Part shown: piece by piece, positions 7,967-64,000 of the stretch | How positions within the stretch are numbered: position 1 is the stretch's first letter | Layout of the letters: each line of letters starts with the position of its first letter | DNA from: Nemertoderma westbladi | Lineage: Eukaryota > Animalia > Xenacoelomorpha | DNA: 64,000 bases | Direction of reading: 5' to 3' | Assembly: GCA_032718475.1 (NCBI GenBank) | Contig: JAUCBJ010008884.1 | Location: 32,670 to 96,669, forward strand | Notes under the pieces: generated by a model | The model's database searches: none | Seen by the model: only the letters and a program-made list of their open reading frames with translations | What the model was told of the DNA's origin: nothing | Made by a program: the position numbers and the translations under genes

Positions 7967-7974
7967 CCGCTCCC
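7967..7974 (-). other. Short polypurine tract of element A (GGGAGCGG)
   Basis: Purine-rich run immediately upstream of the 3' LTR on the minus strand. Confidence 0.55.
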
Positions 7975-8459
7975 AGAAAATGGGATTTTCAGTCTATAAA
8001 ATATAAAAATCACAGTTTCTAAAACATAAAGATACTCTAAACAGTTAGTTTTTCTTGCGCGGACGGCGTTCACGCAGTTTCCCGAGGCCAGCAAGAGTCC
8101 TTTTCACTTTGGGGCGAGCCACTTTACTAGAAAGGCTATAACTCCTGGGTAAAGGGTGCAATACAATTGCATTAGAAGGTTTGGGTATACGGTCGGAGCC
8201 TCGTCCATTTCGATATGCTTCTCCTCGAGCTGATTTTCCTCCGCTTGTCATGGGATACGTTCGTCCAAAACTTTCGCAGAGAATAGGGTTTTCTAAGCTT
8301 GATATCTTCTTAGAGATTCGAGATTTCCCAATCGAACTGAGATAAGGCCAATTCGTTTATCGATTGGACTTACTGTTATAACTTACGTTTATCTGAACAA
8401 ACGCAGGTTTCTTTTTTGATCTTTATAGAATAGCGTTTAACTCGTTTCGTACAACGCTC

Positions 8460-9354: not shown

Positions 9355-11027
9355 CTTCTATCAACTCCGTCATATCAGCTATATATGAGTTTATTAATAT
9401 TATAATGAGTTTATATTTAGGCTAGCGAGCGTCGCTGCCTACCACAATCAGCCCCCGGACAGTGCGAGATCCTCAGCGCCGATGTGTCGTCGCCGCTGTA
9501 CTTTCGCCAACGACGTAGCCGCACAACGACAACGACAACCGGCACAAGTCACTCGACTGTCCGTCCCAAAGGCTTAGATACACCTCAGGTTCTTACTGGA
9601 GAGTTAGGGTTACTTTCACAATTGCGACTCGCTACTGTAAACACACCTTAGTAGTAACATTCGCCTATAAACTCACAAATACCACACACACAACTTGTCA
9701 CAAATTACACATAATCGGGCCATTTGTCCGTTAGTCAATGCCTTACAGAATGTCACGTTATTATTATCTATGTACTAGCAGTGCGCTATTTATTCCCTAT
9801 GCTATTCAATGGGACAAGCTTTCTATTGTTCTTTTAACTCACTTCTAATTCTAGCGTGGTTGTTGCTATGGTGACATTATGCAAAGCTAGCGGTAGAATT
9901 AGGGTAATTCCAATGCATACAGATCTGGGATGTTATTTAATAGTAATTCTTTAATGGTCAATGTCCTGTTTTATACATGGCTTTATGAATTTTATCGGCT
10001 ATTGACTATGTTTGGGAGACTTTCGCACACTCATACGCATAATAAGATAAATCTCCGCTCCCTTGATCTATTAATTAATGGAATTTTGGGAATGTTATAA
10101 ATTGCGTAAAAATGGCAATTTATTAAATTCATTAAAAGGCATGAATTTAAATTTATTCCCTGAAATTTTATTATTTGGTAATTAAATTGACATATTTTGA
10201 TTCTAGAACATGTCTGGGGACACAAGATCCTTAATTCTATGACAATTGTCTTTTTAAGAATATCGGTAAATGCTACGATATCTTAATTGACTAGAATTGT
10301 TGAAGGATCTGAATTTTACAGATTTTGATTTATTGGATTTGCAAATATTAAATAATTAATATTTGAGATGGGCACCGATTTATTCCAGAACTTGTCTGGG
10401 GACGTTAACCACTGATTCTAGAATTTGTCTTTCAAGTATATCGGTGGGTGCCGCGATATCTTAATCGACTAGAATTACAGATGGTCAAAGGGTTTAACAG
10501 ATTTATTTTGCGTTATACGCTACTGTTAAAGGGACATCACGCTACTATATGTATTATTTAATATACGGTATGAGAGCAATATCGCACGAAGCAATGTCAG
10601 TGTGAAGAGGCAAGTCGTTTCCAAGGTCTACCCAGAGCTTGGTTTAGCCGAGACACGAGGATCTGAACTTTTCATTCCTAATACTCTGCCTACCAATAAT
10701 ACTTAAATATAATAGTGGCTTTATTGTACTTTAATAAGTACGGACATTTCATCTTACTGTAGTCACGTATTTATAATATGATACGGACAGTAAGGAAAGA
10801 GAAAAAAGAATTATTTCTTGCCGTCGCATTAAATATAATATATACGTAATTAAGTAATAAACGCGAATATATATTGCACTAATCTACTAAATAATCGCTA
10901 AAATAACATTCTACTGAATAAAATTAAAGAAAACGATTATAATAAAATTACATAGTAATACATACAGAAATATAAAAATAATAAAATAATATAAAATAAT
11001 AGAGTCACACACCCACTCCATATGTTG

Positions 11028-14000: not shown

Positions 14001-15521
14001 AACAGTCTCCTGCATCTGTCCGAGCAGGAGATCCATCCCCCGTCGTCTCTCGTCCACCCATTCGACCGCCGAAGCGGGAGTCGCCAACGTTGTAGCGGGC
14101 GGACGAGGGACAACGGGCGACAAATCATGAATATTTCGCTCGGGGTCCAGGACCTGAACTGTCTCCTGGGCAGTTCTACGGGGCACAGGTAGCTTAGTGC
14201 TATGCAGAGGGAATTTAGAGGTAGTTTCAGGGAGCACAGGTGTGTCTATCACCGAAGGGGTGATTTCAAGAACAGGCCTAATTATTTCAGGCTCATCTAC
14301 TATAGTAGGGAGTCTTTCTATTTTAATTGTTTGGTCTGTGGGTTCTGTACTACCTAAGTTGGTGTTATTTAGTTGCCTTCTAACAGCTGGAGGCAAATCA
14401 GGCAATTTCTGACGGTGGAATGTTCTTTTACGTCTGCTTAGACGAGATCTATTTCCTTTGCCTTCAGTATCGGTGGTATCGCCTTCCTCAGATGATGTAT
14501 ATCCCTGTCTTTTGGGAGTAGATCGATTCATCATCTGCATATTACTAGCTGTTAACTGTTTATTTATGCAGTCTTGATTCTCCTGAATGTTTTCCAATTC
14601 TAATTGGGTGATTTCTTCCGCCGCTCTACGTTCTGCTTCTGCCACTGCCATTTCCGCCTTTCTTTTCATTTCGGCTGCTTTTCTTTTCGCTTCTGCCTCT
14701 GCCGCTGTCGCTGCCGCTTTTGCCTCTGCCGCTGCCGCCTTTGCTTCTGCTGCTGTCGCTGCCGCTTTTCTTTCCATCTCGGCTGCTTTACTTTCCTCTT
14801 CGGCTGCTTTCCTTTCCGCTTCGGCAGCTGCTACTGCTGCTTTCTTTCTGTCTTCTATACGTTTTTTCTTTACTTGTTCTTCTTGGACTCGTGTCAGGCG
14901 GAGTTGTTCATCAAATTTAGCCTGATTCGCAGCCCTCATATCCACATCGATGGCATCCAACACAAGCTTGGTTCCTTCACTATTAGGGCTAAGTCCCTCT
15001 AACCTTCTCCTCAACTCGTCATCACCTAAAAAACGTTGATAGTCTGACAGATAGATGTCAATGGCATCCCTCTTATGCGGTTTCTCTGCTGTCACTTCGC
15101 TTTCTTCTTGAGAAGAAGTGGCGTCGGTTGATTCTTCATAGGTTGGCCGCTCATCATAAACCTTATCCACCATCTTCACTCCGCGTTCGGGCGTCCGCTC
15201 ATCAGTATCCGAACTACTGGAGCTATCGGGCCGCTGAAAACTAGGTTCTTGGCTAGGATGTTGCTGCTGTTTGACAGCTGCTTCTTGATCCCGCTTGACT
15301 TGGGTCCGAGTGCCGATGATAGACCTACGATGTTGGACTAGCCTAGGATCTGACACTACTTCTGTAGGGATGGCCTTTCTCACAGCAGGAGGTGACTTAG
15401 ACTTGGATCTAGGATGTTCTCTACTTGGATCTGGGTCACTGATCTTTTTAAGACACTGTCTAACAGTCATTCTAACACTATCTAGGAGACTATCCGACAG
15501 TGATTGGGTTGTGTCAGACAT
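11028..15521 (-). CDS. gag: BEL/Pao Gag-protease polyprotein (1497 aa) ending in RNase H and integrase remnants; no RT
   Basis: Ala/Glu/Lys coiled-coil; DUF1759-like capsid (KFNGGEMKWLPF...EKLRFLIECLEG); three Cys/His knuckles (CVLCDGPH, CYNCLRRGH, CAKCGAKHHILLH); protease ALLDSGS...ILIGQN...RTRVGWYLTGP; then the Pao RNase H C-terminal motif QWRYCPKKFNPTDIASRG and YSSWNRLCKAV. Confidence 0.92.
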   Translation of the reverse strand: MSDTTQSLSDSLLDSVRMTVRQCLKKISDPDPSREHPRSKSKSPPAVRKAIPTEVVSDPRLVQHRRSIIGTRTQVKRDQEAAVKQQQHPSQEPSFQRPDSSSSSDTDERTPERGVKMVDKVYDERPTYEESTDATSSQEESEVTAEKPHKRDAIDIYLSDYQRFLGDDELRRRLEGLSPNSEGTKLVLDAIDVDMRAANQAKFDEQLRLTRVQEEQVKKKRIEDRKKAAVAAAEAERKAAEEESKAAEMERKAAATAAEAKAAAAEAKAAATAAEAEAKRKAAEMKRKAEMAVAEAERRAAEEITQLELENIQENQDCINKQLTASNMQMMNRSTPKRQGYTSSEEGDTTDTEGKGNRSRLSRRKRTFHRQKLPDLPPAVRRQLNNTNLGSTEPTDQTIKIERLPTIVDEPEIIRPVLEITPSVIDTPVLPETTSKFPLHSTKLPVPRRTAQETVQVLDPERNIHDLSPVVPRPPATTLATPASAVEWVDERRRGMDLLLGQMQETVQQFKGTVRESRLELQEVQQSIALERDKLVNTQKGIPPPSVTMCQPVRSEVSHAQGVEPTRIYTASEVETPIVNPIKGNYRPVDNDIPYRTDHNPRNLYTDNSILNNTMAQESFTRQMARTEARQAVKVGEIVKFNGGEMKWLPFNEYYKDNIQNSVLSNGEKLRFLIECLEGSPKLMALRFIGHPDGLRQVWDTLNIRYGNRNNIAGYLYAKLVAPRKFISSGIIEFSDEIQEICRQLDWLGKSHEYQSAMVIRAVASTLPKGGVGTRWDKKVLYMMEQQQRDPTMADLMSFLDSEVKLQLIKQSREKTEESKVSEKPVSRRRVTPVCYTDDGESQTSQGEDSGKDTERSYYVNKTPKDQVSKFKSRTNDRREQVRKTPPTSPKRIQVRKPEERTNVHHIAQVKVSNIKPKCVLCDGPHRLNACDKFLRKSLKDRHEVMWDKRLCYNCLRRGHQRRTCYSDARCAKCGAKHHILLHTEFERNSPSQVSESKLHVQFSDVNDTDQSEMEGFYTDEFTDQNESCYLINTTAVYRALVHEKDPDSDLTLTTSDQQPSWKAPTSNIGIQEFSVVQIRVHGPQKSYIVNALLDSGSTGTFIDKELAEDLFAGQPKFRTKLSMSGIMQVWKSAVAADYYIGELSTPQDKLGEHSIRSVKMVAIKNFATTQVEPYNWDEDDHAQQLNIPRFDTDYPGVQILIGQNAHEALETLEKRPAQPQPLQTYAVRTRVGWYLTGPSRRTLRERLLQDRVCQVSEWEDDTSEGDDPTEGTPYSSDNDDISSNVDQWRYCPKKFNPTDIASRGATPQELTDTTDRLGEPDFLSKEDEWPPHLTPTEIRPAKGAEKVKPKTRTGGAELFEPGIDLSVLHIARDDAVDLDLPTASGSFMKIRESDWSSGTSDVSQGLSPLLQGATDHYSSWNRLCKAVVYLERCFYRHYSRTKRKSGIVFGMQRLNHPVGRLCLPEGNGGLSGNCGRQDSLPTTTSLILQTSRDSIT

Positions 15522-15631: not shown

Positions 15632-16182
15632 TGTGACGGGATCCGAGAGGATCCCGGTTTATCCGGTGTGTTTCGTACGCGTCCCCGCCCCGCCGTGTGA
15701 ATGGAAAAGGTAATAATTGTTCTAGTGTCGTTGTCGAACTCTGATAACGTTGAGATAATAAATGATGAGTGATACAGATAGCACAGTAGATAAAGCTAAT
15801 ATACCGGTAATATGGTGACGGTGGCGACGACGGTCTTAACAGTCACCGTACTGCCTTACTGTACTGGGATAGCTGACTGAGTAAACTGAATGATATGATT
15901 ACAGGTTACTGGTTATATTGCACGGTGGCCTTATTGCTACTCAATCGATGCCATTCCCCCCTCTGATTGGTTAATACCCTTGTTGGCGCCCCGTGGAGTA
16001 TTCCCGTTCACTCCACCTGTTCTCCTTGGGTTAGGGGTTTGGCCCCTGACCTTCTATTGTGTGCTTCCTTCCCACTCTTATTGGGATGGCACGAGTTGGT
16101 TAATTGCCCAATCTCGTGGCTCCCAATATTGCTTATCGGCTAATAACTTTATGGGGTGTTGGCGGGATTGAATAAGCTAACA
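15632..16182 (-). repeat. 3' LTR of element B (551 bp)
   Basis: Direct repeat of 22722-23272 with one difference seen (ATCTCGTGG vs ATCTTGTGG). Confidence 0.96.
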
Positions 16183-18097: not shown

Positions 18098-21088
18098 CTA
18101 TCTGGATCTACTATCTCCTGTTTCTCCTCTTCGTTCCTCTGCGCCTGCGGTGCCTGGTAACATGCACCCTGATGTCTCTGTCACACTGCATGGGATCTTA
18201 GTTTTAACTGGGCCGCTAAGCATCCATCCGAACGGCGTGAGGATCGCCGTCGGGTCCCGCTGCCTGTCTTCGCCGAAGACCGTCTTCGTTCTCTCGTGGG
18301 CCGTCGGGCAGTCCATCCCTACTATAATGGACACCTTCCTAACGTCCACCTTTGGTATTGAGAAATCGATACCGTCCAGGAATCTATATTGTTCGACCTC
18401 AATGTTGGTTGGTCGCCTGGCGTTGATGTTTATCGATTCTATGACGTGGATGGGGTCGATCGTCGCCCCATAGTCGTATCCCGGTGCAATCGCTGCTATC
18501 CTGCACCGCCCCGCCCTCGTCTCCAGGACCTCATCTTTACTCGAGACGGTAGTCACCGCCATTCTATTCGGCCTTGTCTTTAGCCCTATCTCTTCGGCCA
18601 CCCAGTTCTCCACCAGCGTGAAGGCTGCTCCGCTGTCGACCAGCATTAATGTCGTTACTGATCGACCGCCCTCTCCTGATATCTTTACTGGTACTACCCC
18701 GAGTAGTACTTTTCTCTTCTTCTCCTCTTCTGTCGTGCTTGTGGCCATTGCCTGGCCTCCAGTCTCGGACTCTCTAACTGCTGTTTCTCTACACTCTCCG
18801 GATCTGTGTCCTTCTACCACACATCGATGACATAGTCCGTTCGCGTCTGTGTAGGCTATACGATCTTGTTTGGGCAACGCTTGCCAGTGCTTACAACTCC
18901 TGGTCTTATGTGTTCCATCCCGATGTAATTGACATTCGAATCCTGGATCATAGCGTTCCCTGTATAGTCCCTCACGTATCGCGCCTAGGTTTATATGTAC
19001 CGATTTAGTGTTTTGGTTGTCTGTATTCGGCCTACTGGGTACATTGGGATTATGTTTATTTATGGTGTTATTTTCTTTCTGTCCCCGCCACGGTGTGGCC
19101 CTACTACCAGCTAACTGTGGACTAGCAGTCCCCTGTGTGGCCGCATGTGGTAGTGATTGTCCTACTCTCGGGAGTGGATCTGCAGGATCGTGTTCGGGTT
19201 TATGGCTTGTCCCCAAACTATCCTCGCTATAGACTGGGTCTGTTATTAATTCGGCTTCATAGTTGAGGAAGCTCGACATCTCTTCTAAGCCCGGTTCCGC
19301 ACCCTTCTTCTCCCGTGTGGAGAAGGCTATCTTCCTCCACTTCCTTCGTAACCAGATCGGCAGTGCCTGCGCTATCGTGGTGATGTTGTTAGACGCGTTG
19401 AGTTCGTATGGTGCGTCTAGCGTCTTTAACACGATTAACGCCTTCTCGACCTTGTTTGCAAAGGTCCTTATGCTAACGGGATTGTCCTGTAGGCCATCCG
19501 ATGTTATGCCTCTCAGGGTTTGCCGGATGATCTTGGCCGGGTGCCCGTATTCCCTATCTAGCGCCCGCCATGCTGTCGTGAAGCCGCCCTCGATGCCCTG
19601 GTATTGCCTCACGATGTCGTATGCTGGGCCTCCTGTATATACTTGCAGATATTTTAGGCACTCCGCCTGCGTCAAGTTCTTACTTAATATTTCGTTACTA
19701 TACATGCGCCGAAACTGTAGATATTCTTCCGGCCTACTCCCATCGAATTTAAATGGTTCCACAGGTGGTAACTCGATCCTAGTTTTTAACGCATCGATCA
19801 ATGTGGCCATTCCCATCGCTTGCGCTTCTAATGGGTTCGATGGATGTTGTATAGTTTCTCCTGCTGGGTACGGTCCGTCCGTCCTATTTGTTGTTGACTT
19901 TATTTGTTGCGTCGGATATATCATTGGGGGTAACGGCCCCCTCCATATTTCCGTGTCGCACGATCTGTTCTCGTCCAAGGGGTTCGATGTTCTCGCTCCT
20001 ATTGGGGTATATTGTTGATATTGTGATGGGGGAATGTCACCCTGTCCCCCCCCCACCGGTATGTTTGGTACTGGGGTTGATGTTAATATATTGGGGCCCA
20101 TACATCTATCTACAATAACTCTCCCCTCCCCTGGATATATGTTATGTCCCTGTGTATTATAGTCATGCTGCTGTACCGATATAGGCCTACCTACCTCTCG
20201 CCTACCTACCGGTATGTACTCCGCGACTTCCGGGTTTAATCCCGTCGTTCGCGCTACCCTATCGCCTACTCTATCTCTCCCAGCATGGCCTATAATAGTA
20301 TGTGCAGTAAGGCCTACAGTATGTCCTGCAGTCTGCATGTGCCCTTCCGAACCGAAGTTTATTCTTCGCGAATCTCGAATCTCCCCGCGACTACCGTACT
20401 CTCGATCGGCAGCTATATCACGTCGGGAAGTTTCCCTTCGATCCCCTATCCTGCTCTCGTCTTCATATCGGTACGTCCTGTACCCCTCTCTTAGCGTGCG
20501 GTGCGTTTCTCCGGGGCGACGGCAATCTCCCGAAGTTCGACCCCACTGACTCCCTAACTCCATCTCTACTATCGACGGCTCGCTATCCGTCCTCGCTCTC
20601 CGGTTGCTCCTAGCAACGACTCTTCTATTATCTTCACTTCTTCTTTCTTCGACCTCTCGGCTAAACTCTACTAATCTTCTTCTATCTTCGACCTCTCTAT
20701 TAAACTCTACTAATCTTCTCTCTTCTGACTGGGCTCGACGTTCCGTCGCCCGCCCTCTCGCGACGTCAACCTGTCTCTCTCTGCTCGATCGCACGCCGCT
20801 GGGGATACTCGCAATCCCCCTATTACTCTCCGTCGCCGGGTGTTGCGGTTTACCTAATTCGGCCCGCGCATTATCCGCCGACGCCTGTGGGACACTCCCT
20901 GCCCCCCCTCTCTCGCTACTAATCTCTCGCGGTAGGGTGCCCGTAGCCCCCCCCCACCCGCTACTTCTAACTTCACTATCTCTTACTACACTTCTGCGTC
21001 CCTCTTGTGGGGCATTCTCTGCCCCCCCTCTCTCGCCACTAATCTTCTGTGGTGGGGCGCCCGTAGCCCCCCCCCCCACCCGCCACAT
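18098..21088 (-). CDS. gag: Element B Gag-protease, C-terminal part
   Basis: DUF1759-like ELPPVEPFKFDGSRPEEYLQF...LKYLQVYTGGPA; knuckles CQLHRDGTHKTRSC and CHRCVVEGHRSGEC; protease LVDSGAAFTLV...IIVGMD...TPFGWMLSGP; stops before any RT. Confidence 0.9.
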   Translation of the reverse strand: MWRVGGGATGAPPQKISGERGGAENAPQEGRRSVVRDSEVRSSGWGGATGTLPREISSERGGAGSVPQASADNARAELGKPQHPATESNRGIASIPSGVRSSRERQVDVARGRATERRAQSEERRLVEFNREVEDRRRLVEFSREVEERRSEDNRRVVARSNRRARTDSEPSIVEMELGSQWGRTSGDCRRPGETHRTLREGYRTYRYEDESRIGDRRETSRRDIAADREYGSRGEIRDSRRINFGSEGHMQTAGHTVGLTAHTIIGHAGRDRVGDRVARTTGLNPEVAEYIPVGRREVGRPISVQQHDYNTQGHNIYPGEGRVIVDRCMGPNILTSTPVPNIPVGGGQGDIPPSQYQQYTPIGARTSNPLDENRSCDTEIWRGPLPPMIYPTQQIKSTTNRTDGPYPAGETIQHPSNPLEAQAMGMATLIDALKTRIELPPVEPFKFDGSRPEEYLQFRRMYSNEILSKNLTQAECLKYLQVYTGGPAYDIVRQYQGIEGGFTTAWRALDREYGHPAKIIRQTLRGITSDGLQDNPVSIRTFANKVEKALIVLKTLDAPYELNASNNITTIAQALPIWLRRKWRKIAFSTREKKGAEPGLEEMSSFLNYEAELITDPVYSEDSLGTSHKPEHDPADPLPRVGQSLPHAATQGTASPQLAGSRATPWRGQKENNTINKHNPNVPSRPNTDNQNTKSVHINLGAIREGLYRERYDPGFECQLHRDGTHKTRSCKHWQALPKQDRIAYTDANGLCHRCVVEGHRSGECRETAVRESETGGQAMATSTTEEEKKRKVLLGVVPVKISGEGGRSVTTLMLVDSGAAFTLVENWVAEEIGLKTRPNRMAVTTVSSKDEVLETRAGRCRIAAIAPGYDYGATIDPIHVIESININARRPTNIEVEQYRFLDGIDFSIPKVDVRKVSIIVGMDCPTAHERTKTVFGEDRQRDPTAILTPFGWMLSGPVKTKIPCSVTETSGCMLPGTAGAEERRGETGDSRSR

Positions 21089-22626
21089 CTAACTTCAATA
21101 TCTCTTACTTCGTCTCTACACCCCTCTCTAGTCGACACACTGTCTCTACTGCGGCCGGGTCTATTCACCCCCGCCTCTCTCTCTACTACTGCGTGGCCTA
21201 CCAGGCCCACCTCGGGTTGGCTCAACCCCGCTACCTCCTGCCTACCAACTACGTGGCCTACCAGGCCGCCGTCGGGTTGGCGCAACCCCGCCACTTCCTG
21301 CCTACTAACTACGTGGCCTACCAGGCCGCCGTCTGCCGGGCTATACACGTCTGACACGTTCATATTAATAGCACCATTCCCAATATTATTTGTTAAATCA
21401 ATTGAATTATTAGAATTTGAAACGGAATTATTTAAATTATTTAAATTAGAGTTGTTATTATTTTCAAAATTTAAATTGCTATTCGAATTATTTGAATTAT
21501 TTTGATAATTCTGAACATTTGAATTAATATTATTATTTGAATTTAAACTTAAATTACTACTACCGGGTAAAATATTTCCTGTAATAAAGGGATTAGGGTT
21601 ATTTACTACGGTACTATTAATACCAATATTTCCTAACGCACTACTACTACCCCCCTCACCCGTACGATTGCTGTACGTACTGTACGTGTACCGCACGCTC
21701 TGTTCTCTTGCCTCACGCTCTTCGCGTTCACTCTCTCGCTCCTTCCTTCCCCTCAGTCGCCACTCTAATTCTTCAATTTTTAATTTATATGCAGCCAGAT
21801 TTATCTCCTGCACCCTTCTTTCTTTTGCGGAGGATGTAGCAGACTTATCGGTTGCGACGGACTCCCGCCGCCCCTCCGTCCTACCAACTTTCCCCCGCTT
21901 TCCGGGGTCCTCGCTGACCGACGAGACCGAATCCTCGGAGCTAACCTCGGATTCGCCCTCGTGCGGTCCCGCCCAACCCACTAACTTAACTTCCCTGGCA
22001 TCGACTAAGTATGGCCCTATGTACACTACACCAGGCCCCATACCCCTACGTTCCCATAGCCCAAACAGTTCGATGGCAACCCCTCTCGCTCTCTCGCTGG
22101 CTAGTTCTCCCTGCCCAGAACGCACTAGGTAATCAAAGTATCTGTTCGACTCACCTAGTCGTCTCCTCAACTTCACCTGGTCTATCTCAGCCCCTCCTCT
22201 AGCTTCCTTCAGTTGTTCCCGGGTCGCGGCGTAGGCTCGTCGAAGTCGATCAGAAACCCCGACATCCTCGTCGCCGACCTCTCCTCTCTCCCTCCGGGTT
22301 CGGCGTCGTACCGTCGGCTCCACCGTTGCCGTTCCGGTGGGCCGTTCGTCGCCCTCGGTCTGTGGCTGACCGGCGACATCGGCATATCGACCGCCGCCCT
22401 GTGTCGACTCGTCTCTCTCCTCCCCCGTCTCGCTCTCTCCTCTACTCGACTCGCTCTCTCGCTGTAGACGACCCCCCACATCTTGGTTCGCCGGGTTGCT
22501 CGTTATCGACGTGGTCGACGTAGCATCGACCGGCGTCGTGGGTCCGTATCGTCTCGCCGTGGCCTCGCGGATCGTTAGATCGTCGTCCGGGGTCCGCGGC
22601 GGTGTCGTTCCTCTCTCTCGACTCAT
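20986..22626 (-). CDS. gag: Element B Gag, N-terminal part (joins the next ORF if a G11 homopolymer at 21067-21077 is corrected)
   Basis: First long ORF after the 5' LTR; low-complexity with an Asn-rich tract and 20-aa repeats. The frame switch lies in a G run that is 9 nt long in the sister repeat at 20947-20955. Confidence 0.8.
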   Translation of the reverse strand: MSRERGTTPPRTPDDDLTIREATARRYGPTTPVDATSTTSITSNPANQDVGGRLQRESESSRGESETGEERDESTQGGGRYADVAGQPQTEGDERPTGTATVEPTVRRRTRRERGEVGDEDVGVSDRLRRAYAATREQLKEARGGAEIDQVKLRRRLGESNRYFDYLVRSGQGELASERARGVAIELFGLWERRGMGPGVVYIGPYLVDAREVKLVGWAGPHEGESEVSSEDSVSSVSEDPGKRGKVGRTEGRRESVATDKSATSSAKERRVQEINLAAYKLKIEELEWRLRGRKERESEREEREAREQSVRYTYSTYSNRTGEGGSSSALGNIGINSTVVNNPNPFITGNILPGSSNLSLNSNNNINSNVQNYQNNSNNSNSNLNFENNNNSNLNNLNNSVSNSNNSIDLTNNIGNGAINMNVSDVYSPADGGLVGHVVSRQEVAGLRQPDGGLVGHVVGRQEVAGLSQPEVGLVGHAVVEREAGVNRPGRSRDSVSTREGCRDEVRDIEVRCGGWGGGLRAPHHRRLVAREGGQRMPHKRDAEV

Positions 22627-22712
22627 CTTCGTCTTTGGTAGCCGTCAGTCACAGCTCGGCAGGCCTAGTGTTAAGACTGTGACGGGCAGTTACAGTTCAG
22701 GCAATTCTCAGA

Positions 22713-22721
22713 TGTTAAGAC
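22713..22721 (-). other. Non-canonical primer-binding site of element B (GTCTTAACA), complementary to its own LTR segment 22923-22931
   Basis: Directly follows the 5' LTR; lacks TGG; exact 9-nt reverse complement lies inside the LTR. Confidence 0.7.
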
Positions 22722-23272
22722 TGTGACGGGATCCGAGAGGATCCCGGTTTATCCGGTGTGTTTCGTACGCGTCCCCGCCCCGCCGTGTGAATGGAAAAGG
22801 TAATAATTGTTCTAGTGTCGTTGTCGAACTCTGATAACGTTGAGATAATAAATGATGAGTGATACAGATAGCACAGTAGATAAAGCTAATATACCGGTAA
22901 TATGGTGACGGTGGCGACGACGGTCTTAACAGTCACCGTACTGCCTTACTGTACTGGGATAGCTGACTGAGTAAACTGAATGATATGATTACAGGTTACT
23001 GGTTATATTGCACGGTGGCCTTATTGCTACTCAATCGATGCCATTCCCCCCTCTGATTGGTTAATACCCTTGTTGGCGCCCCGTGGAGTATTCCCGTTCA
23101 CTCCACCTGTTCTCCTTGGGTTAGGGGTTTGGCCCCTGACCTTCTATTGTGTGCTTCCTTCCCACTCTTATTGGGATGGCACGAGTTGGTTAATTGCCCA
23201 ATCTTGTGGCTCCCAATATTGCTTATCGGCTAATAACTTTATGGGGTGTTGGCGGGATTGAATAAGCTAACA
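22722..23272 (-). repeat. 5' LTR of element B (551 bp)
   Basis: Upstream of gag on the minus strand; direct repeat of 15632-16182. Confidence 0.96.
22973..23060 (-). promoter_or_regulatory. Putative LTR promoter of element B: CCAATCAGAG box, TATAA, Inr-like TCAGTT
   Basis: CCAAT starts at 23060, TATAA at 23007 and the A of TCAGTT is at 22977, giving spacings of -83 and -30. The same CCAATCAGAG occurs in the LTRs of A and D. Confidence 0.5.
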
Positions 23273-25354: not shown

Positions 25355-25365
25355 ATATCCGTTAT
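25355..25365 (-). other. Non-canonical primer-binding site of element A (ATAACGGATAT), complementary to its own LTR segment 26085-26095 (7492-7502 in the 3' LTR)
   Basis: Directly follows the 5' LTR; lacks TGG; exact 11-nt reverse complement ATATCCGTTAT is on the LTR sense strand. Confidence 0.8.
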
Positions 25366-26559
25366 TGTTCGCGCTTTCAGACCTTTGGCAGTTTAACCCG
25401 CCAAATTAGGATGTCTTCTAGATAATAAATCGCTTTAGCCTCTAACAAGTATTTGATTCACTACACTAGTTGAAACCAATCTGTGCGCGATCATTCACCC
25501 GTTGGATATACCCGGGAGATTGACTTCGACGGCTTAATCGTATTGCTATGTAAGCCTAATGTATTATTCGACTGACAGTATTATATAATCTCTGACAATA
25601 TTATTCACCTTCGGGGAATATTAACAGTTCCTTTAGGACGTGGCGCTCTATCTATATAAACAGAGTTATGACTTAAACTACTCACAACGATATGGCTTAG
25701 TTACAATTCACATATATGGCGCATTCTTTAGGAAATGCTTCGTTATCAGTCTCACTCATACACAATGCTGCACAATACTGCACACTGATCTGCCGATCTT
25801 CACTGATTTTAGTCACATATAAAAGGAACACGGACCGAATCATGTAGGGTCTATCAAATAACATTAGATTCACTTCAAACCACTTTAACATAAGTCACAA
25901 TCGTTATATGTAACCTTTCTCTCTTACCTTCGGTATATCAAGAATATTGGGTTTCGGGGTTATTTCTCGTTATTCCAAATATAATAATTCATCAACCATA
26001 TTATGAAGAACCGACAGTGAATAGCAGTATAACAATATAAAAGTATGCACAGGTTGTTTGATTAGGTATGGTATGTTATGTTTGATAACGGATATATGTC
26101 CTTATAATTAAGCCTACTAGTGTAAGGCTAAAGCAGAAAAGCACAAAATACTCCAAAGCCGTTCTTCCTTGGCTCAGGACTGAATGATAACACTGCCCAT
26201 AATGCATTACGTGATTTCTCGGAAATTTCTGTACAAGAGCCATAAAAACGCTCTGATTGGTTGACTGAACTGAGAGATGCCGTAGAACAAAGAAAATCGA
26301 CACGTATGAATATCAGCTGTTAACCGTCGTCATAGTAACTACTGTTCAAGAGTATCTCGCCTCTTTTGCGTCATAGAATTGCCATGGAACCACCAACCAT
26401 GTCTTCCAAAGTACACATACGGAAGAAATAGCTCTTAGGTCCTCTAAAAAACACCGATACAGCAATAATACGGCCTCTTACGCCTACTAAACCAACTACA
26501 GAGTATTTTACGGGAAAAATAAGGAAAAATAACCGGGCAATTCCGCAAAAGCTTTTACA
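25366..26559 (-). repeat. 5' LTR of element A (1194 bp)
   Basis: Direct repeat of 6773-7966; upstream of gag on the minus strand. Confidence 0.96.
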
Positions 26560-27514
26560 TAGTGGGTCAGTAGATAGCAGTCTAGAACTATAAAGTTATT
26601 GAGATAGTGGGTCAGTAGATAGGAGTTTAGAACTATATAAAGTTATTGAGATAGTGGGCCAGTAGATAGGAGTCTAGAACTATACAGTTATTGAGATAAT
26701 GGGTCAGTAGATAGGAGTCTAGAACTATAAAGTTATTGAGATAGTGGGCCAGTAGATAGGAGTCTAGAACTATAAAGTTATTGAGATAGTGGGTCAGTAG
26801 ATAGGAGTCTAGAACTATATAAAGTTATTGAGATAGTGGGTCAGTAGATAGGAGTCTAGAACTATAATGTTATTGAGATAGTGGGTCAGTAGATAGGAGT
26901 CTAGAACTATATAAATTTATTGAGATAGTGGGCCAGTAGATAGGAGTCTAGAACTATAAAGTGATTGAGATAGTGGGTCAGTAGATAGGAGTGTAGAACT
27001 ATAAAGTTATTGAGATAATGGGTCAGTAGATAGGAGTCTAGAACTATATAAATTTATTGAGATAGTGGGCCAGTAGATAGGAGTCTAGAACTATAAAGTG
27101 ATTGAGATAGTGGGCCAGTAGATAGGAGTCTAGAACTATATAAAGTTATTGAGATAGTGGGTCAGTAGATAGGAGTCTAGAACTATAAAGTTATTGAGAT
27201 AATGGGTCAGTAGATAGGAGTCTAGAACTATATAAATTTATTGAGATAGTGGGCCAGTAGATAGGAGTCTAGAACTATAAAGTGATTGAGATAGTGGGCC
27301 AGTAGATAGGAGTCTAGAACTATATAAAGTTATTGAGATAGTGGGTCAGTAGATAGGAGTCTAGAACTATAAAGTTATTGAGATAATGGGTCAGTAGATA
27401 GGAGTCTAGAACTATATAAAGTTATTGAGATAGTGGGCCAGTACATAGGAGTCTAGAACTATAAAGTTATTGAGATAGTGGGTCAGTAGATAGGAGTCTA
27501 GAACTATAAAGTTA
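26560..27514. repeat. 45-bp satellite (about 21 monomers)
   Basis: Same monomer and orientation; resumes in register after the TSD. Confidence 0.97.
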
Positions 27515-28457
27515 CTACTACTACTAGGATCGGCATGCTGCGTTGCAGCTGCATTTTTAAGAATGCTGTGCCGGCTTGTCAACAAAATTGCACCGCCACA
27601 ACTCCCTATCACCCATGACATTTGCTAGATCATCTGCATCTTTAAGGCCAGTGTCCTTTAAGATGCGTCTCAAGAAAGTCATGGGCTGTCCACCATGCTT
27701 ATTCACTCCATGAGGCTGCCAAAGTACAAGATTATGCACTGGCTGGTCCTCACGGCGAAAGCAATGTCCTGCAAAGCGGAGGCGATTTTGTTCTAGTGTC
27801 AAGCTTGGGGGAACCAATGAGACACCTCCAATGTTATATAGTGTCTGGTTGGAGATGTGTGCATTGTACTTGACACAATGAACCCGGCGTAGCATTCTTG
27901 TGAATGTGCCATCCAGAGATTTGGTGTCCTCAGCAGTTAGAGCCCAGCATGGACTCCCATAGAGGAGTACTGGAACTACTGCTGCTCTAAATAATCGGAC
28001 CTTAAGTTTCCGATTAATTCTCGGTGACTTCCAAATCCTGGAAAGCCTATTCAAGGCTGCCCATGCCTTTCCCTTACGTATTCGAAGGTCCTCACCTGAC
28101 TTCCGGATCCATGATCCCAGGTAACAGAAGTCGTCCACATGCTCAAGCATACCATCCTTTGAACTTATGCTCATCCGATCAGAGACTTGCTGAGGACTTT
28201 CAAAGTTAACTGTCAGAATTTTGGTCTTTCTGGAGTTAATAAAAAGACCAACACTAGAAGCAGCATGTTCTAATGAGCTGAGGAGCCGTTGGGCTCCTTC
28301 TAATGATTCTGAGAGTACTCCTAAGTCATCAGCAAAGTCTAGATCAGTTAGGTACTTGGCAGGATTTCCTCGACTTCTGGAGCCAGTAGGTGGAGTTATC
28401 ATCACCCCATCATCATTATGATGATCTAAGGACATGCGTAGAACATAGTCAACCACA
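27515..28457 (-). mobile_element. Element C: 5'-truncated non-LTR retrotransposon (RTE-like LINE)
   Basis: RT C-terminal ORF, ~40-nt 3' UTR ending in a (TAG)4 tail, and a 13-15-bp TSD AGAACTATAAAGT(TA) (27500-27514 and 28468-28482). An extra AGAACTATAC sits at the 5' junction. Confidence 0.92.
27557..28456 (-). pseudogene. C-terminal 299 aa of a LINE reverse transcriptase (5'-truncated, frame still open)
   Basis: LDFADDL catalytic motif, GLFINSRKTK, FCYLGS, LLYGSPCW and RLRFAGH are typical of RTE-clade ORFs. The start codon in the track is only the truncation point. Confidence 0.9.
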
Positions 28458-31400
28458 AGAACTATACAGAACTATAAAGTTATTGAGATAGTGAGTCAGT
28501 AGATAGGAGTCTAGAACTATAAAGTTATTGAGATAGTGGGTCAGTAGATAGGAGTCTAGAACTATAAAACTATTGAGATAGTGGGTCAGTAGATAAGAGT
28601 CTAGAACTATAAATTTATTGAGATAGTGGGCCAGTAGATAGGAGTCTAAAACTATATAAAGTAATTGAGATAGTGGACCAGTAGATAGGAGTCTAGAACT
28701 ATGAAGTGATTGAGATAGTGGGCCAGTAGATAGGAGTCTAGAACTATAAAGTTATTGAGATAGTGGGTCAGTAGATAGGAGTCTAGAACTATAAAGTTAT
28801 TGAGATAGTGGATCAGTAGATAGGAGTCTAGAACTATAAAGTTATTGAGATAGTGGGTCAGTAGATAGGCGTCTAGAACTATAAAGTTATTGAGATAGTG
28901 GGTCAGTAGATAGGAGTCTAGAACTATAAAGTGATTGAGATAGTGGGCCAGTAGGTAGGAGTCTAGGACTATAAAGTTCTTGAGGTAGTGGGTCAGTAGA
29001 TAGGAGTCTAGAACTATAAAGTTATTGAGATAGTGGGTCAGTAGATAGGAGTCTAGAACTATAAAGTTATTGAGATAGTGGGTCAGTAGATAGGAGTCTA
29101 GAACTATAAAGTTATTGAGATAGTGGGTCAGTAGATAGGAGTCTAGAACTATAAGAACTATAAAGTTATTGAGATAGTGGGTCAGTAGATAGGAGTCTAG
29201 AACTATAAAGTTATTGAGATAGTGGGTCAGTAGATAGGAGTCTAGAACTATAAAGTTATTGAGATAGTGGGTCAGTAGATAGGAGGCTAGAACTATAAAG
29301 TTATTGAGATAGTGGGTCAGTAGATAGGAATCTAGAAATATAAATTTATTGAGATAGTGGGTCAGTAGATAGGAGTCTAGAACTATATAAAGTTATTTAG
29401 ATAGTGGGTCAGTAGATAGGAGTCTAGAACTATAAAGTGATTGAGATAGTGGGCCAGTAGATAGGAGTCTAGAACTATAAAGTTATTGAGATAGTGGGTC
29501 ATTAGATAGGAGTCTAGAACTATAAAGTTATTGAGATAGTGGCCGTCAGTAGATAGGAGTCTAGAACTGTAAAGTTATTGAGATAGTGGGTCAGTAGATA
29601 GGAGTCTAGAACTATAAAGTTATTGAGATAGTGGGTCAGTAGATAGGAGTCTAGAACTATAAAGTGATTGAGATAGTGGGCCAGTAGATAGGAGTCTAGA
29701 ACTATAAAGTTATTGAGATAGTGGGTCATTAGATAGGAGTCTAGAACTATAAAGTTATTGAGATAGTGGCCGTCAGTAGATAGGAGTCTAGAACTATATA
29801 AATTTATTGAGATAGTGGGCCAGTAGATAGGAGTCTAGAACTATAAAGTTATTGAGATAGTGGGTCAGTAGATAGGAGTCTAGAACTATAAAGTTATTGA
29901 GATAGTGGGTCAGTAGATAGGAGTCTAGAACTATAAAGTGATTGAGATAGTGGGCCAGTAGATAGGAGTCTAGAACTATAAAGTTATTGAGATAGTGGGT
30001 CAGTAGATAGGAGTCTAGAACTATAAAGTTATTGAGATAGTGGGTCAGTAGATAGGAGTCTAGAACTATAAAGTTATTGAGATAGTGGGTCAGTAGATAG
30101 GAGTCTAGAACTATAAAGTGATTGAGATAGTGGGCCAGTAGATAGGAGTCTAGAACTATAAAGTTATTGAGATAGTGGGTCATTAGATAGGAGTCTAGAA
30201 CTATAAAGTTATTGAGATAGTGGCCGTCAGTAGATAGGAGTCTAGAACTATATAAATTTATTGAGATAGTGGGCCAGTAGATAGGAGTCTAGAACTATAT
30301 AAAGTTATTGAGATAGTGGGCTAGTAGATAAGAGTCTAGAACTACAAAGTTATTGAGATAGTGGGCCAGTAGATAGGAGTCTAGAACTATAAAGTGATTG
30401 AGATAGTGGGTCAGTAGATAGGAGTCTAGAAATATAAAGTTATTGAGATAGTGGGTCAGTAGATAGGATTCTAGAACTATAAAGTTATTGAGATAGTGGT
30501 TCAGTAGATAGGAGTCTAGAACTACAAAGTTATTGAGATAGTGGGCCAGTAGATAAGAGTCTAGAACTATAAAGTTATTGAGATAGTGGGTCAGTAGATA
30601 GGAGTCTAGAACTATTTAAAGTTATTGAGATAGTGGGTCAGTAAATAGGAGTCTAGAACTATATAAAGTTATTGAGATAGTGGGCCAGTAGATAGGAGTC
30701 TAGAAATATATAAAGTTATTGAGATAGTGGGTCAGTAAATAGGAGTCTAGAACTATATAAAGTTATTGAGATAGTGGGCCAGTAGATAGGAGTCTAGAAC
30801 TATAAAGTTATTGAGATTGCGCGTCAATAGATAGGAGTCTAGAACTAAATAAAGTTATTGAGATAGTGGGTCAGTAGATAGGAGTCTAGAACTAAATAAA
30901 GTTATTGAGATAGTGGGTCAGTAGATAGGAGTCTAGAACTATATAAAATTATTGAGATAGTGGGTCAGTAGATAGGAGTCTAGAACTAAATAAAGTTATT
31001 GAGATAGTGGTTCAGTAGATCGGAGTCTAGAAGTATATAAAGTTATTGAGATAGTGGGTCAGTAGATAGGAGTCTAGAACTATAAAGTTATTGAGATTGG
31101 GCGTCATTAGATAGGAGTCTAGAACTATAAAGTTATTGAGATAGTGGGTCAGTAGATAGGAGTCTAGAAATATATAAAGTTATTGAGATAGTGGGCCAGT
31201 ACATAGGAGTCTAGAACTATAAAGTTATTGAGATAGTGGGTCAGTAGATAGGAGTCTAGAACTATAAAGTTATTGAGATAGTGGGTCAGTAGATAGGAGT
31301 CTAGAACTAAAAAGTTATTGAGATAGTGGGTCAGTAGATAGGAGTCTAGAACTATAAATTTATTGAGATAGTGGGTCAGTAGATAAGAGTCTAGAACTAT

Positions 31401-58903: not shown

Positions 58904-60132
58904 TGTAAAAGCTTTTACTGAATTGTCCGGTTATTTTTCCTTATTTTTCCCGTAAAGTACTCTGTAGTTGGTTTACCGGGCATGGAAAGGCCGTGTCCTT
59001 GCTGTACTGGTGTTTTAGCGGACATAAGAGCTATTTCTTCTGTATTTGTACTTTAGAGGACATAATCCGTAATTCCGTGACGTAAAAGCTCGATACTCTT
59101 GAAAACAGTGTCGCTACCATGACGACGGCTAGCAGCTGATATTGCCACGTCGACGTTTCTTTGTTTCTCTGTTCTCTCGTTGTTCAGGTTGACCAATCAG
59201 AGCGTTTGTTGTCTTTGTGTTGGAGGTATATACAGAAACTCAGTAGTTCAGTGTTATGTTTTTGTCCAGAGCCTAAGAACCGGCTTTGGCACCTCCGTGT
59301 TTTAGTTTTTAGTCTTACACTAGTAGGTTTAATTATAAAGGGCATATATCCTTTAACGCACCTACCTGACTCATGGAATCACTGCATACTGATGACTGAT
59401 GTCTGCATACTGCAGTACTGCATACACTGCATACTGTGTAACATTGTGCATACCTTTATATTGTTATACTGCTATTTACCGTCAGTTCTTCATAATATGG
59501 TTGATGAATAATTATATTTGGAATAACGATAAACAACCCCGAAACCCAATGTTCTTGATATACCGAAGGTAAGAGAGAAGGGTTACAGATAAACGATTGT
59601 GACTTATGTTAAAGTGGTTTGAAGTGAATCTAATGTTATTTGATAGACCCTACATGAGCCAGTCTGTGTTCCTTATATATGTGACTAAAATCAGTGAAGA
59701 TCGGCAGATTAGTGTGCAGTATTGTGCAGCATTGTGTATGAGTGAGTCTGTTAAAGAAGCATTCCTAAAGAATGCGCCATATATGTGAATTATAATTAAG
59801 CCATATCGTTGTGAGTGGTTTAAGTCATAACTCTGTTTATATAGATAAAGCGCCACGTCCTAAAGGAACTGTTAATATTCCCGAAGGTGAATAATATTGT
59901 CAGAGATTATATAATACTGTCAGTCGAATAATACATTAGGCTTACATAGCAATAAAATTAAACCGTCGAACCCAATCTCCCGGGAATTTCCAGCGGGTGA
60001 ATGGTCGCGCACGGATTGGTTTCGACTAGTGTAGTGAATCAAATACTTGTCATAGACTAAAAAACTGATTTAATATCTAGAAGACATCTTAATTTGGTGG
60101 GTTAAACTGCCAAAGGTCTGAAAGCGCGAACA
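58904..60132 (+). repeat. 5' LTR of element D (1229 bp)
   Basis: TGTAAAAGC...GCGCGAACA termini identical to those of the A LTR. Confidence 0.93.
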
Positions 60133-60143
60133 TTAAAGGATAT
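60133..60143 (+). other. Non-canonical primer-binding site of element D (TTAAAGGATAT), complementary to its own LTR segment 59346-59356
   Basis: Directly follows the LTR; exact 11-nt reverse complement ATATCCTTTAA lies at the position homologous to that in A. Confidence 0.82.
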
Positions 60144-62286
60144 TGCTTCTTTATTGCAGTAAGCAATAAAGTCGAAAGTACCGGTCGACCGGTAACCAGT
60201 AGGCCTGACTGCCTGATCATCCGGACCGGTACCTACAGCAGTATTATTCGATTTTGATTGTTATATACCAGTAGGTCTTAATAATTAATCGGGGACGCCT
60301 GGTTTTTATTGAGATTTTACTTATTTCTGTCAAGTTTTATTTATTTGTAGGCCAGTATTGAACAGAAGGCGTGTAAGCCTGATCAGATTGTACAGACAAT
60401 TTGTAGGCTGAGCTGTTGTCTGATTGCTGTTAAGTCCGAACGAATTGCAGTGTGTGTAGAGCACTTGTCCGATTAAGTACGGTTAGGAAGTAGGGGCAGT
60501 GAACACTGTAAGGTAAACCCCCAACTAAAGAATAAGTCGCACTACTGGGTTAGAGCGCATACTCCCTAATCATTTCGGAGTCTGCATGTCCTGTAGTTTA
60601 TTTAGGCTTGAGAGTAGTCTGCCATCGTTTAGTCTGTACTTTGTTTGTGTAAGTCTGTACGGGTAGCGTATAATTTTATTTAAATAATTTGTAGGCTGGA
60701 TAGTTGTCTGGCTGTTATTAGGTCTGAACGGATTGCCGCGTGTGTAGATCATCTGTCCGATTAAGTACGATTAGGCAGTAGGGGCAGTGAACACTGTAAG
60801 GTAAACCCCCAACTAAAGAATAAGTCGCACTACTGGGTTAGAGCGCATACTCCCTAATCATTTCGGAGTCTGCATATACCGTAGTTTGTTTAGGCTTGAT
60901 AGTAGTCTGTCAGTGTTCGGTCTGTATTTTGTTTGAGTAGTTTGTACGCGTAGCGTAATATTTATTATTCAGAGGTTATGCGATTATTCGCAACATTCAA
61001 GTCCCTAAGTTTGTTCCTACAGTAATTGTGTTTGTTATACATACCGTTATAGTTAAATTAACCCCGGTACTACACGGGCTGCTCGGCGTAGGTAAAGACT
61101 GGTGATTTTGTGCATCGGTCACTCCAGCAGATGCCGTGGTTCTTTTAGCTGTTCAAGTATATTTAACTGCTGATTATTTGTTGTACAAGTACTCGTACCT
61201 AATTTAGGGTTTAGTGTACAGTGCTTTCCTGAAGTAATTAGTGTAGACATTATATCTGTGTTGTAAAGTGGTTGATAGGCATATTCGATTAGCTCTATTA
61301 ACTTCTAGGTAGGAACACTCCGTGATACATAACGTAGAACCTATAGCGATACGGCTATAGGTCGTCAGGCGGTGGTATTTTCCTATCTAGACAACGCAGT
61401 GTATTTACTACTACTTATTATTTCAAATACCGTAGTACCCTGTCCGCTGTAATAATCAGTTTTCTAATCCTTTGTTAGGCTGGTTTGTAGACTTCTTGTA
61501 AAATTACCCTAAAAATTCGTATTTGCGTTTTTGTAAATTTTTGCATTTATTTAGAGATTGTAATCTCACCCGAATTGTACGTAATTTGTAGTATTAAGTA
61601 ACTTAGGTAAATTAGAATTATTTGTTTTAGTGTCCTATACGTAACACTTCACTGAAAGCGCACCGCTTTGTGTAGTGATTACTCCCCAGAAATAATAACA
61701 TTTATTTCAAACATTGACAAAACCCACTAAAACGGGTATATATATATTATAAATCAAATCTAACGATTTATAAATCGTAGGCCTACCATACAACCATTAG
61801 GTCTCAATATCAGTTGGATTACTGCTCAAATAACGGTAATAAAGTAAGTTAAAGTAACCAAGTAACCCTAAAATACAGAAATTCAATTATTTAAAATAAT
61901 TGATATACCGGTATTTACGATAGGCCTATTATCTTTATTTTTATAAATCTAGGTTGAAATTATACCGGTACTTGTAATTAATTCTATTTCAGAATTATAT
62001 ATCCTACAAACTGTAAGCTGTATACCGGTATTCCGATAGGCCTATTATATATTTATATATATTTGTGCTAAAATTATACCGGTATTCTGTGATAAACCTA
62101 GTCTGTAATAATACTTATATAGTTATATATACTATAAGTATACCGGTATTCTAATATATTATATATATATCACGCTACACTGAGTAGCAGTAACGGTAAT
62201 TAATTACTAGGCTAGCAGTTCATACTGAGTTATTAGACTTACTCAGACTGTAATACAGCAGTAGACATTCAACGGTATACATAGTC

Positions 62287-64000
62287 ATGTCTGATACTAA
62301 GCAGAACCTGTCAGACAGTTTATTAGATGTAACTATCTGCGACTCAGATAGAGACGTACAAACGTCTGGTCGTAAATCCAGTTCACCTCCCACTGTGAGG
62401 AAGGTCATCCCTCCAGTAGTAATAACAGAACCTAGGCTAGTCCAACATCGTAGGTCTATCATAGGCACTCGAGCTCAGGTCAAGCGGGACCAAAAGGCAG
62501 CGGAACAGCAACAACCCGCTAGTCAAGAACTTATTCCTCAGCGGCCCAGCAGCTCCAGTAGTGAGGATACTGTAGAGCTGACACCAGAGAGCGGAGCAGA
62601 GATGACGGATGCGGTTTATACGGATCCCCTTCTCATCCTTCCTGCAGCCGTGCTCGCTGGGTTATTGATCGCGGTGGAAGAACACCAGATCGATTGGGCG
62701 AGAAGTCAACGGTCAACTAGAGATAGCTACGCGGGCTACACTAGTGAAGAACTGAAGTCTATTGTCGAGTCGCAATGGAACTTCCCCGGACCCGGACTCC
62801 CGTTTGATTTATCAGAAGCTGCCTGGGAAGACATACACCGGATGGGAGTAGCCAAGGAAACCATCGATCCAGCTGTGTGGAAGAGGTCCGCAGCCGGATA
62901 CGCACAGGGATTCTTCAGCTCTATGGAGCGAATAGAAAAGCAACTTTTTCAACAACCTCAAGGACCTCAAGAGCAGGGATCGCTGCTTTATCAAGTTAGA
63001 GAAAGAGTTCTGCGGATTAGGCTAATCTTATCCGCCTTTGAGGAGGCTTCTAAAAGAAGGCAAGACACGTCGTTGCAAGTTGCCGTAAAGACTTGGTTTC
63101 AACGGGTGAGTTGCCAGGTTCAAGGAGCAGCTCAGTGGAAGGCTCAGTTGGAGGAGCGCTCAACCCATGGAGAATCAACAGACGCTACTTTTTCCCAAGT
63201 GGAAAGTGAAGCGACGGCAGAGAAACCGCATAAGAAGGATGCCATTGATATCTATCTGTCAGACTATCAGCGTTTTGTGGGAGATGAAGAGTTGAGGAGA
63301 AGGCTAGAGGGACTTAGCCCTAATAGTGAAGGAGCCCAGCGTGTGTTAGATGCAATTGATGTGGATAGGTTAGCGGCGAACCAAGCTAAATTCGATGAAC
63401 AACTCCGCATCGCTAGAGAAAAGGAAGAACAAGTAAAGAAAAAACGTATAGAAGACAGAAAGGCAGCGGCAGTAGCAGCAGCAGTGGCAGCTGCAGAAGC
63501 AGAAACAAAGGCGGCAGCGGCAGAGGCAGCGGCAGAGGCAAAAGCGGCAGCGGCAGAGGCAATGGCAGAGGCAAAAGCGGCAGCGGCAGAGGCAGCGGCA
63601 GAGGCAAAAGCGGCAGAAGCAGAAAGAAAGGCGGCAATGGCAGCGGCCGAAGCGGAAAGAAAGGCGGCAGAGGCAGTGGCAGAAGCAGAACGGAGGGCAT
63701 CTGAAGAGGCAACCCAACTAGAGTTGGAAAATCTTCAAGAGAGGCAAGACAACTTCAATAAACAGTTAACAGCGAGCAATATGCAGATGATGAGTCGATC
63801 TACTCCCAAAAGACAAGGGTATACCTCATCTGAGGAAGGCGATACCACCGACACTGAAGGCGGAAGAAATCGATCTCGCCTAAGCAGACGTAAAAGAACA
63901 TTCCACCGGCAGAAATTGCCTGATTTGCCTCCAGCTGTTAGAAGGCAACTAAATAACACCAACTTAGGTAGTACAGAGCCCACAGACCAAATAATTACAA
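62287..64000 (+). CDS. gag: Gag of element D, N-terminal ~571 aa (runs off the window)
   Basis: Hand translation MSDTKQNLSDSLLD...RLVQHRRSIIGTR...DAIDIYLSDYQRF matches A Gag. No stop was seen, and the ORF is absent from the track, consistent with running off the window. Confidence 0.9.
   Translation, partial: MSDTKQNLSDSLLDVTICDSDRDVQTSGRKSSSPPTVRKVIPPVVITEPRLVQHRRSIIGTRAQVKRDQKAAEQQQPASQELIPQRPSSSSSEDTVELTPESGAEMTDAVYTDPLLILPAAVLAGLLIAVEEHQIDWARSQRSTRDSYAGYTSEELKSIVESQWNFPGPGLPFDLSEAAWEDIHRMGVAKETIDPAVWKRSAAGYAQGFFSSMERIEKQLFQQPQGPQEQGSLLYQVRERVLRIRLILSAFEEASKRRQDTSLQVAVKTWFQRVSCQVQGAAQWKAQLEERSTHGESTDATFSQVESEATAEKPHKKDAIDIYLSDYQRFVGDEELRRRLEGLSPNSEGAQRVLDAIDVDRLAANQAKFDEQLRIAREKEEQVKKKRIEDRKAAAVAAAVAAAEAETKAAAAEAAAEAKAAAAEAMAEAKAAAAEAAAEAKAAEAERKAAMAAAEAERKAAEAVAEAERRASEEATQLELENLQERQDNFNKQLTASNMQMMSRSTPKRQGYTSSEEGDTTDTEGGRNRSRLSRRKRTFHRQKLPDLPPAVRRQLNNTNLGSTEPTDQIIT

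Follow-up and report, generated by a model that had tools for sequence, protein, structure and literature searches.

Tf1 is a demonstrated self-priming LTR retrotransposon, and some gypsy and copia lineages are predicted to be self-priming as well. In Tf1 of Schizosaccharomyces pombe, the RNA's initial 11 bases anneal to the PBS, with RNase H cleaving between bases 11 and 12 (PMC7175516); Tf2 (PMC5341516) and Tj1 of S. japonicus (PMC4600332) are related self-priming systems. In plants, self-priming was predicted for Tcn1 (gypsy) and for TAR/Houba/Osr-1 (copia) from an LTR complement of at least 10 nt that starts 0-5 nt after the LTR (PMC6317226). Within BEL/Pao, the Achilles element of the olive fly has a tRNA-Tyr PBS (PMC4580426). 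The main text of three BEL/Pao papers (PMC554778, PMC3118150 and PMC6238403), as far as available, makes no mention of PBS, tRNA or priming, and the available portions of three other sources (PMC13524379, PMC11042837 and PMC3286476) hold nothing on BEL/Pao self-priming. It is likewise unreported in the titles and abstract openings found, a scope that left out subscription journals and Repbase entries, so an earlier mention is possible. LTR evolution is covered in PMC3601003, and TRIMs without a PBS occur in bivalves (PMC6934838).

The window, that is, the whole 64-kb stretch of DNA analysed here, has a ground plan of a 45-bp satellite array with inserts. The satellite stretches (1-6772, 26559-27514 and 28468-58903) host elements A and D and one LINE piece, and the A/D family may be frequent within the array. 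At 27515-28467 on the minus strand lies a 5'-truncated non-LTR retroelement fragment with RVT_1 and DUF6451 (each E ~1e-5), which ends in a (TAG)n tail. Element A spans 26559-6773 on the minus strand. Its 5' LTR (25366-26559, 1194 bp) and 3' LTR (6773-7966, with a weak polypurine tract just before it) show a single difference over 1193 compared positions (26559-25366 versus 7966-6773), terminate in ...GAACA and are flanked on both sides by the 5-bp duplication (TSD) CACTA. Its gag-protease ORF (11028-15521, minus strand) encodes DUF1759, three zinc knuckles and, at its end, a short RNase H remnant; the 3 kb between this ORF and the 3' LTR (7967-11027, minus strand) contain stop-free frames of at most 103 codons and no integrase match. 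Element B (23272-15632, minus strand; TSD TACAC) is nested inside the leader of A. Its 5' LTR (22722-23272, 551 bp) is unrelated to the A and D LTRs and differs at one position from its 3' LTR (15632-16182), and its ORFs (18098-22644, minus strand) encode gag (DUF1759) and an aspartic protease. Element D lies on the plus strand and continues beyond the window edge, with its 3' end outside; its 5' LTR (58904-60132, 1229 bp, TGT...ACA) is 81% like that of A with identical termini, and the 5' part of its gag ORF (62287-64000) is still open at the window end.

Three zinc knuckles are typical of the gag of BEL/Pao elements (Belpaoviridae). The order found here, DUF1759 and three zinc knuckles followed by an aspartic protease, is that of BEL/Pao gag-protease, and the LTRs have the TG...CA ends and short TSDs of this superfamily, 5 bp long in A and B. 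PF03564 (gag) was detected in both A and B, the protease by Pfam in B and by alignment in A, and the Pao domains PF05380 and PF03564 are both present in six of seven homologues of the A gag-protease. The RNase H remnant of A, possibly of the Pao type (PF05380), matches three full proteins over only 45-60 residues (E 6e-4 to 0.01); this region was not found in B, and neither RT nor integrase was found in A, in B or in the visible part of D. The initial annotation had placed the elements in BEL/Pao, a placement that is supported by gag, knuckles, protease and RNase H remnant but not by RT, which the elements lack. A and B share ~24% identity, over short stretches only, and form long branches without placement in a gag-protease tree. 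Given the near-identical LTRs and the TSDs of A and B, their LTR ends were functional recently. Judged by sequence, A and B are non-autonomous, recently mobile BEL/Pao-type elements, with enzymes presumably provided in trans.

The D PBS (60133-60143, plus strand, TTAAAGGATAT) begins flush with the LTR end and is the exact reverse complement of a candidate self-primer core inside the LTR (59346-59356, plus strand, ATATCCTTTAA), which is preceded by CAT and followed by a hypervariable stretch. The A PBS (25355-25365 on the minus strand; 25365-25355 reads ATAACGGATAT), also flush, is the exact reverse complement of the A core (26085-26095, minus strand; 26095-26085 reads ATATCCGTTAT), of which a second copy lies in the 3' LTR at 7492-7502. 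Re-reading the letters bore out what the initial annotation had described: each PBS is a perfect complement of an 11-mer in its own LTR, the two positions that differ between the A and D PBSs are each mirrored in the LTR partner, the match opens at the first post-LTR base and spans 11 nt, so that the duplex ends at the LTR boundary, and the first 8 nt of both PBSs lack a tRNA-type TGG. The mirrored differences represent one divergence event covering two positions, not two independent events. With the partners swapped (A LTR with D PBS, D LTR with A PBS), only 5 nt match. Anchored matches this long occurred in 25 of 20000 Markov-resampled LTRs for A and 20 of 20000 for D, and internal positions used as mock PBSs reached the same length in 3 of 9722 and 2 of 3830 cases, respectively. 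The chance level first put at ~3e-4 remains low, with the figure itself now at 3e-4 to 1e-3 and thus slightly weaker. The LTR-PBS match of A and D is real and far from chance. Right after the D core, at 59357-59450, the LTR varies most (33 aligned bases of which 16 are identical, and a 55-nt indel, against ~94% identity in the flanks), and a splice-donor-like AAG/GTAAG motif is conserved in U5 downstream of the primer (~59570 in D; 25930-25923, minus strand, in A).

Element B shows a shorter version of the same arrangement. Its PBS (22713-22721, minus strand), flush with the LTR end, is the complement of positions 342-350 of its LTR, a 9-nt candidate core at 22923-22931 (minus strand) that reaches 11 nt with a one-base bulge. 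This match was equalled in 26 of 20000 resampled LTRs and at 10 of 6509 mock PBS sites; the core is short and the PBS helix weak in folding, with a probability of 0.35 at best. None of the three window elements has TGG in its PBS, and in none of the A, D and B LTRs does a splice junction equal or better the contiguous match; on these sequences, all three are assigned to an intron-less primer type.

A PBS complementary to ~11 nt of the element's own LTR RNA, with no match to a tRNA CCA end, is what A and D have in common with Tf1/Tf2, Tj1 and the Tf1/sushi group of Ty3/gypsy. Unlike in that group, the proteins are of the BEL/Pao type, with BEL/Pao polyproteins as homologues and no chromovirus signature, the pairing runs on upstream beyond a bulge, and the distance on the U5 side is up to 776 nt. 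The complement used for the plant predictions is present in A and D but not in B (9 nt); the plant elements belong to other superfamilies and other hosts, and the available text of that report describes no splice-built primer or masking helix. Achilles, of the same superfamily as A, B and D, shares their LTR, DUF1759 gag, knuckle and protease make-up, yet is tRNA-primed. On present evidence, we consider it likely, with a probability of about 75%, that the RT-less BEL/Pao-type elements A, D and B prime minus-strand DNA with their own LTR RNA as Tf1 does, from the 5' LTR copy, while standing outside the Tf1/sushi group. What sets them apart from that group is the different superfamily, the frequently splice-built primer of the relatives and, in A and D, a covarying predicted anti-primer helix.

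RT-coding relatives were collected with an alignment of 12 full-length BEL/Pao proteins as query, which yielded 68 metagenome loci (drawn from 551 confirmed stretches, of which the best 80 were taken) and 17 from genome contigs. For 60 of these 85 loci neither an LTR end nor an LTR start could be placed, since an LTR pair was missing, repeats stood at contig ends only, or the repeats were of another kind; these loci fell outside the PBS test. LTR ends were set by the 5'/3' LTR pair in 13 loci, with L041 and L064 shifted by 1-2 nt to CA. A match had to lie at an offset of 0-6 nt from the LTR end and to be contiguous or to run across a GTRAG...AG junction; this rule (offset, donor and acceptor filters) was set after first looks at the data, and controls were run under the identical rule. 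A self-match over 10-13 nt was present in 12 of the 13 loci (8 spliced, 4 contiguous), compared with 1 of 238 cross pairs reaching 10 nt and 0 of 16 wrong-strand tests reaching 9 nt. L064, with pair-defined ends, had no self-match, and neither had L023. In a second set, with a known LTR start and 300 ACA sites scanned, 12 hits were found in 11 of 12 loci (two in L072), where the cross rate predicts roughly one hit by chance. Omitting L002, L017 and L063 as near-copies of L001, L016 and L060, 20 of 22 non-redundant RT-coding loci match, 14 across a junction and 6 contiguously; the self-priming signature, initially claimed for A and D, is therefore broader, including element B and these loci.

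The 22 non-redundant loci are 35-77% identical in RT-RNase H (median 51) and each has a different PBS. In a FastTree phylogeny of RT-RNase H, the relatives form one group (27 rows, 98% local support); A and B are 21-29% identical to the tested loci and are not placed in their clade. Since the query is biased toward the tested group, these counts carry no inference for the insect BEL/Pao clades. A 24-nt LTR-end pattern gave no matches in the metagenome contigs, and two scans of viral contigs returned no relative. The 17 contigs of L069-L085, which encode BEL/Pao-like polyproteins, are filed under prokaryote genome records and are probably host contamination. Only 4 of the 12 relatives have the match flush with the LTR end, the other 8 having spacers of 1-6 nt. 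Common to L011, L042, L054 and L057 are a TCA spacer plus GGTG after the core; by eye, their pairing could run across the LTR end if a single A is bulged out. The three bases that follow the core in L001 could pair with the opening three bases of its spacer. Sister loci in the RT tree can differ in primer type (intron-less versus intron-containing), namely L057 versus L011, and L020 and L009 versus L001; this pattern suggests that the LTR intron was lost or gained repeatedly.

The splice junctions bear directly on how the match arises. Of the 12 matching loci with pair-defined ends, 8 match only across a GT-AG (GTRAG...AG) junction inside the LTR. Such a junction is present only in RNA, so the pairing takes place at the RNA level, and a PBS that fits the exon-exon joint excludes a DNA fold-back artefact for those families. 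This largely refutes the reading of the match as a functionless by-product at the DNA level (fold-back or template switch in replication), given that 14 of the 20 matching relatives pair only over a junction absent from DNA. That A, D and B are all defective copies would suit such a by-product or a chance match, as would the local rearrangement seen in the B leader, where the last 9 nt of the LTR and the 9-nt PBS are repeated at 22669-22686 (minus strand), 44 nt downstream of the true site. With a chance of ~1e-3 per element and near-identical LTRs and TSDs in A and B also against it, this explanation is very improbable.

The LTR DNA of the junction-type families retains the intron, so the 3' RNA copy that templates that part is unspliced, and we infer that either the 5' copy or a short transcript made separately would supply the primer. 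The latter is part of an alternative in which an element-encoded primer acts in trans or derives from the RNA 3' end: the PBS would be bound by a short transcript of an LTR, such as a solo LTR, or by the 3' R, with no Tf1-like cut in the same molecule. The complementarity data fit this equally well, and the TATAAA 12 nt upstream of the D core could be a poly(A) signal variant, although A reads TATAAG at that place. Were the 3' end spliced, progeny LTRs would lose the intron, which they have in fact retained, and the RNA 3' end was downgraded as primer for this reason; a short separate transcript is unaffected by this argument. As a whole, we regard the alternative as unlikely compared with self-priming from the 5' LTR copy.

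If the RNA folds onto the PBS as that reading has it, the pairing would include more than the core. In A, D and B, the perfect match halts at the LTR boundary at one end, and the predicted pairing runs on upstream of the core beyond a bulge. The upstream extension in the relatives has a median of -6.4 kcal/mol, against -4.1 in 504 (non-independent) cross pairs. In 14 of 23 cases, A and D among them, CA stands 14/13 nt upstream of the 3' end of the primer (background 0.05); this CA, two bases upstream of the core, is compatible with a transcript start or with a bulge. The modelled upstream pairing suggests an RNA longer than the first 11 nt. Of the likeness to Tf1 first drawn, the pairing of ~11 nt of the element's own RNA is retained, and a primer that is simply the first 11 nt is probably not, as the pairing continues upstream past a bulge.

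Further structure became apparent when all helices of at least 6 bp common to A and D were scanned, a comparison of two sequences only. Eighteen helices contain a double change, and 4 contain at least two, against 7 in total over 30 block shuffles. These four are the primer:PBS helix, a primer:U5 helix, 59307-59315/60054-60062 (2 double changes between A and D) and 59221-59226/59292-59297 (at least 2, in a poorly aligned region). A helix at 59326-59334/59956-59964 has one double change, and the conserved block upstream of the D primer (59307-59334, plus strand) holds arms of two covarying helices. The hairpin just downstream of the D PBS (60149-60171, plus strand) has one compensatory change relative to A. 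An Rfam scan of 6700-28500 gave 2 sub-threshold hits and no ribozyme. In the primer:U5 helix, an anti-primer site in the U5 of D (59749-59756, plus strand; homologous to 25741-25748, minus strand, in A) is predicted to pair with 59351-59358 and shows both mirrored changes again. Because they share bases, the primer:PBS and primer:U5 helices are mutually exclusive. The covariation had initially been ascribed to copying of the primer into the PBS, which is not required, given that the U5 site mirrors the same two changes and other helices covary; the U5 site is not refreshable by primer copying, so mirrored changes also arise by selection on RNA structure.

In folding predictions, the primer:PBS helix of A and D has a probability of 0.94-0.95 if the RNA starts no more than 15 nt from the core, and of at most 0.07 from 20 nt on, where the U5 anti-primer helix forms instead, as it does in the whole LTR alone. 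As the folding program does not handle pseudoknots, an alternative role of the long-range helices might be to span the 700-nt U5 and join primer and PBS. Masking was rejected as a general rule for intron-less primers: only 3 of 9 (A, D and L057) are unusually paired in the whole LTR.

That other helices of the A and D LTRs covary equally, and that structural selection alone can mirror changes, agrees with an LTR-PBS helix that serves as a regulatory or packaging structure (an arm of an RNA switch), with a host tRNA fragment or another host RNA priming at or near the site. Priming by host RNA has a precedent in one insect BEL element with a tRNA-Tyr PBS (PMC4580426), and TGG occurs in the first 8 nt of the PBS in one of 13 relatives (L078, at offset 1, within its self-match). 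TGG is absent from the other 15 of the 16 PBSs tested, however, and more than 20 distinct PBSs would each need their own host RNA that also matches the LTR of that element; the length of ~11 nt and the position at the LTR end also recur across families. Such a combination of structural helix and host primer is, on balance, quite improbable. Within the 64-kb window no tRNA was found, and three 8-nt core pieces are absent from a possibly incomplete list of metazoan tRNA 3' ends (supplement file 2 of PMC13524379), as expected for its CCA-ended entries, tRNA halves being outside the list.

Self-priming from the 5' LTR copy could proceed as follows. The 5' part of the element RNA would fold onto the PBS as an 11-bp helix with its bulged upstream extension, and a nuclease, probably the RNase H of an autonomous partner that also supplies RT, would cut where the helix ends on its 3' side, opposite the terminal CA of the LTR. 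RT would extend the new 3'-OH through U5, and a primer that is retained and copied later could refresh the PBS. The RNA's 5' LTR copy would be the source of the primer: among most relatives, the primer would exist only once the LTR intron is spliced, the intron staying in the LTR DNA, and in A and D, which have no such intron, the U5 helix (59749-59756) would mask the primer bases whenever the upstream RNA is longer, which is the case in the 3' LTR copy. More tentatively, and at somewhat less than even odds, a broad BEL/Pao lineage may have left tRNA priming, with the self-primer available only in the 5' RNA copy through splicing of an LTR intron (most families) or through a folding switch that masks the 3' copy (A and D).

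If self-priming holds, it would extend to a third LTR superfamily, in animals, and would answer how marine-type BEL/Pao elements are primed. A primer that is spliced or gated by an RNA switch would couple reverse transcription to host RNA processing, and such elements would presumably escape control by tRNA fragments. PBS filters based on tRNAs would miss them, and a self-complement test that allows splicing locates LTR ends.

Population contigs of two runs, compared with D, showed variants in the PBS at 60137 (position 5; 24-29% of depth) and in U5 at 59751 (18-26%). None of the expected mirror changes at 59352, 59356, 59755 and 60133 reached 8%, in contigs that are unphased and with a depth at the primer that is a fraction of that in U5; for these reasons, covariation is neither confirmed nor clearly refuted by these contigs. 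At 60144, where D has T, A makes up 87-92% of contig depth and would give a twelfth pair with 59345; the minority base at this position is common to elements A and D.
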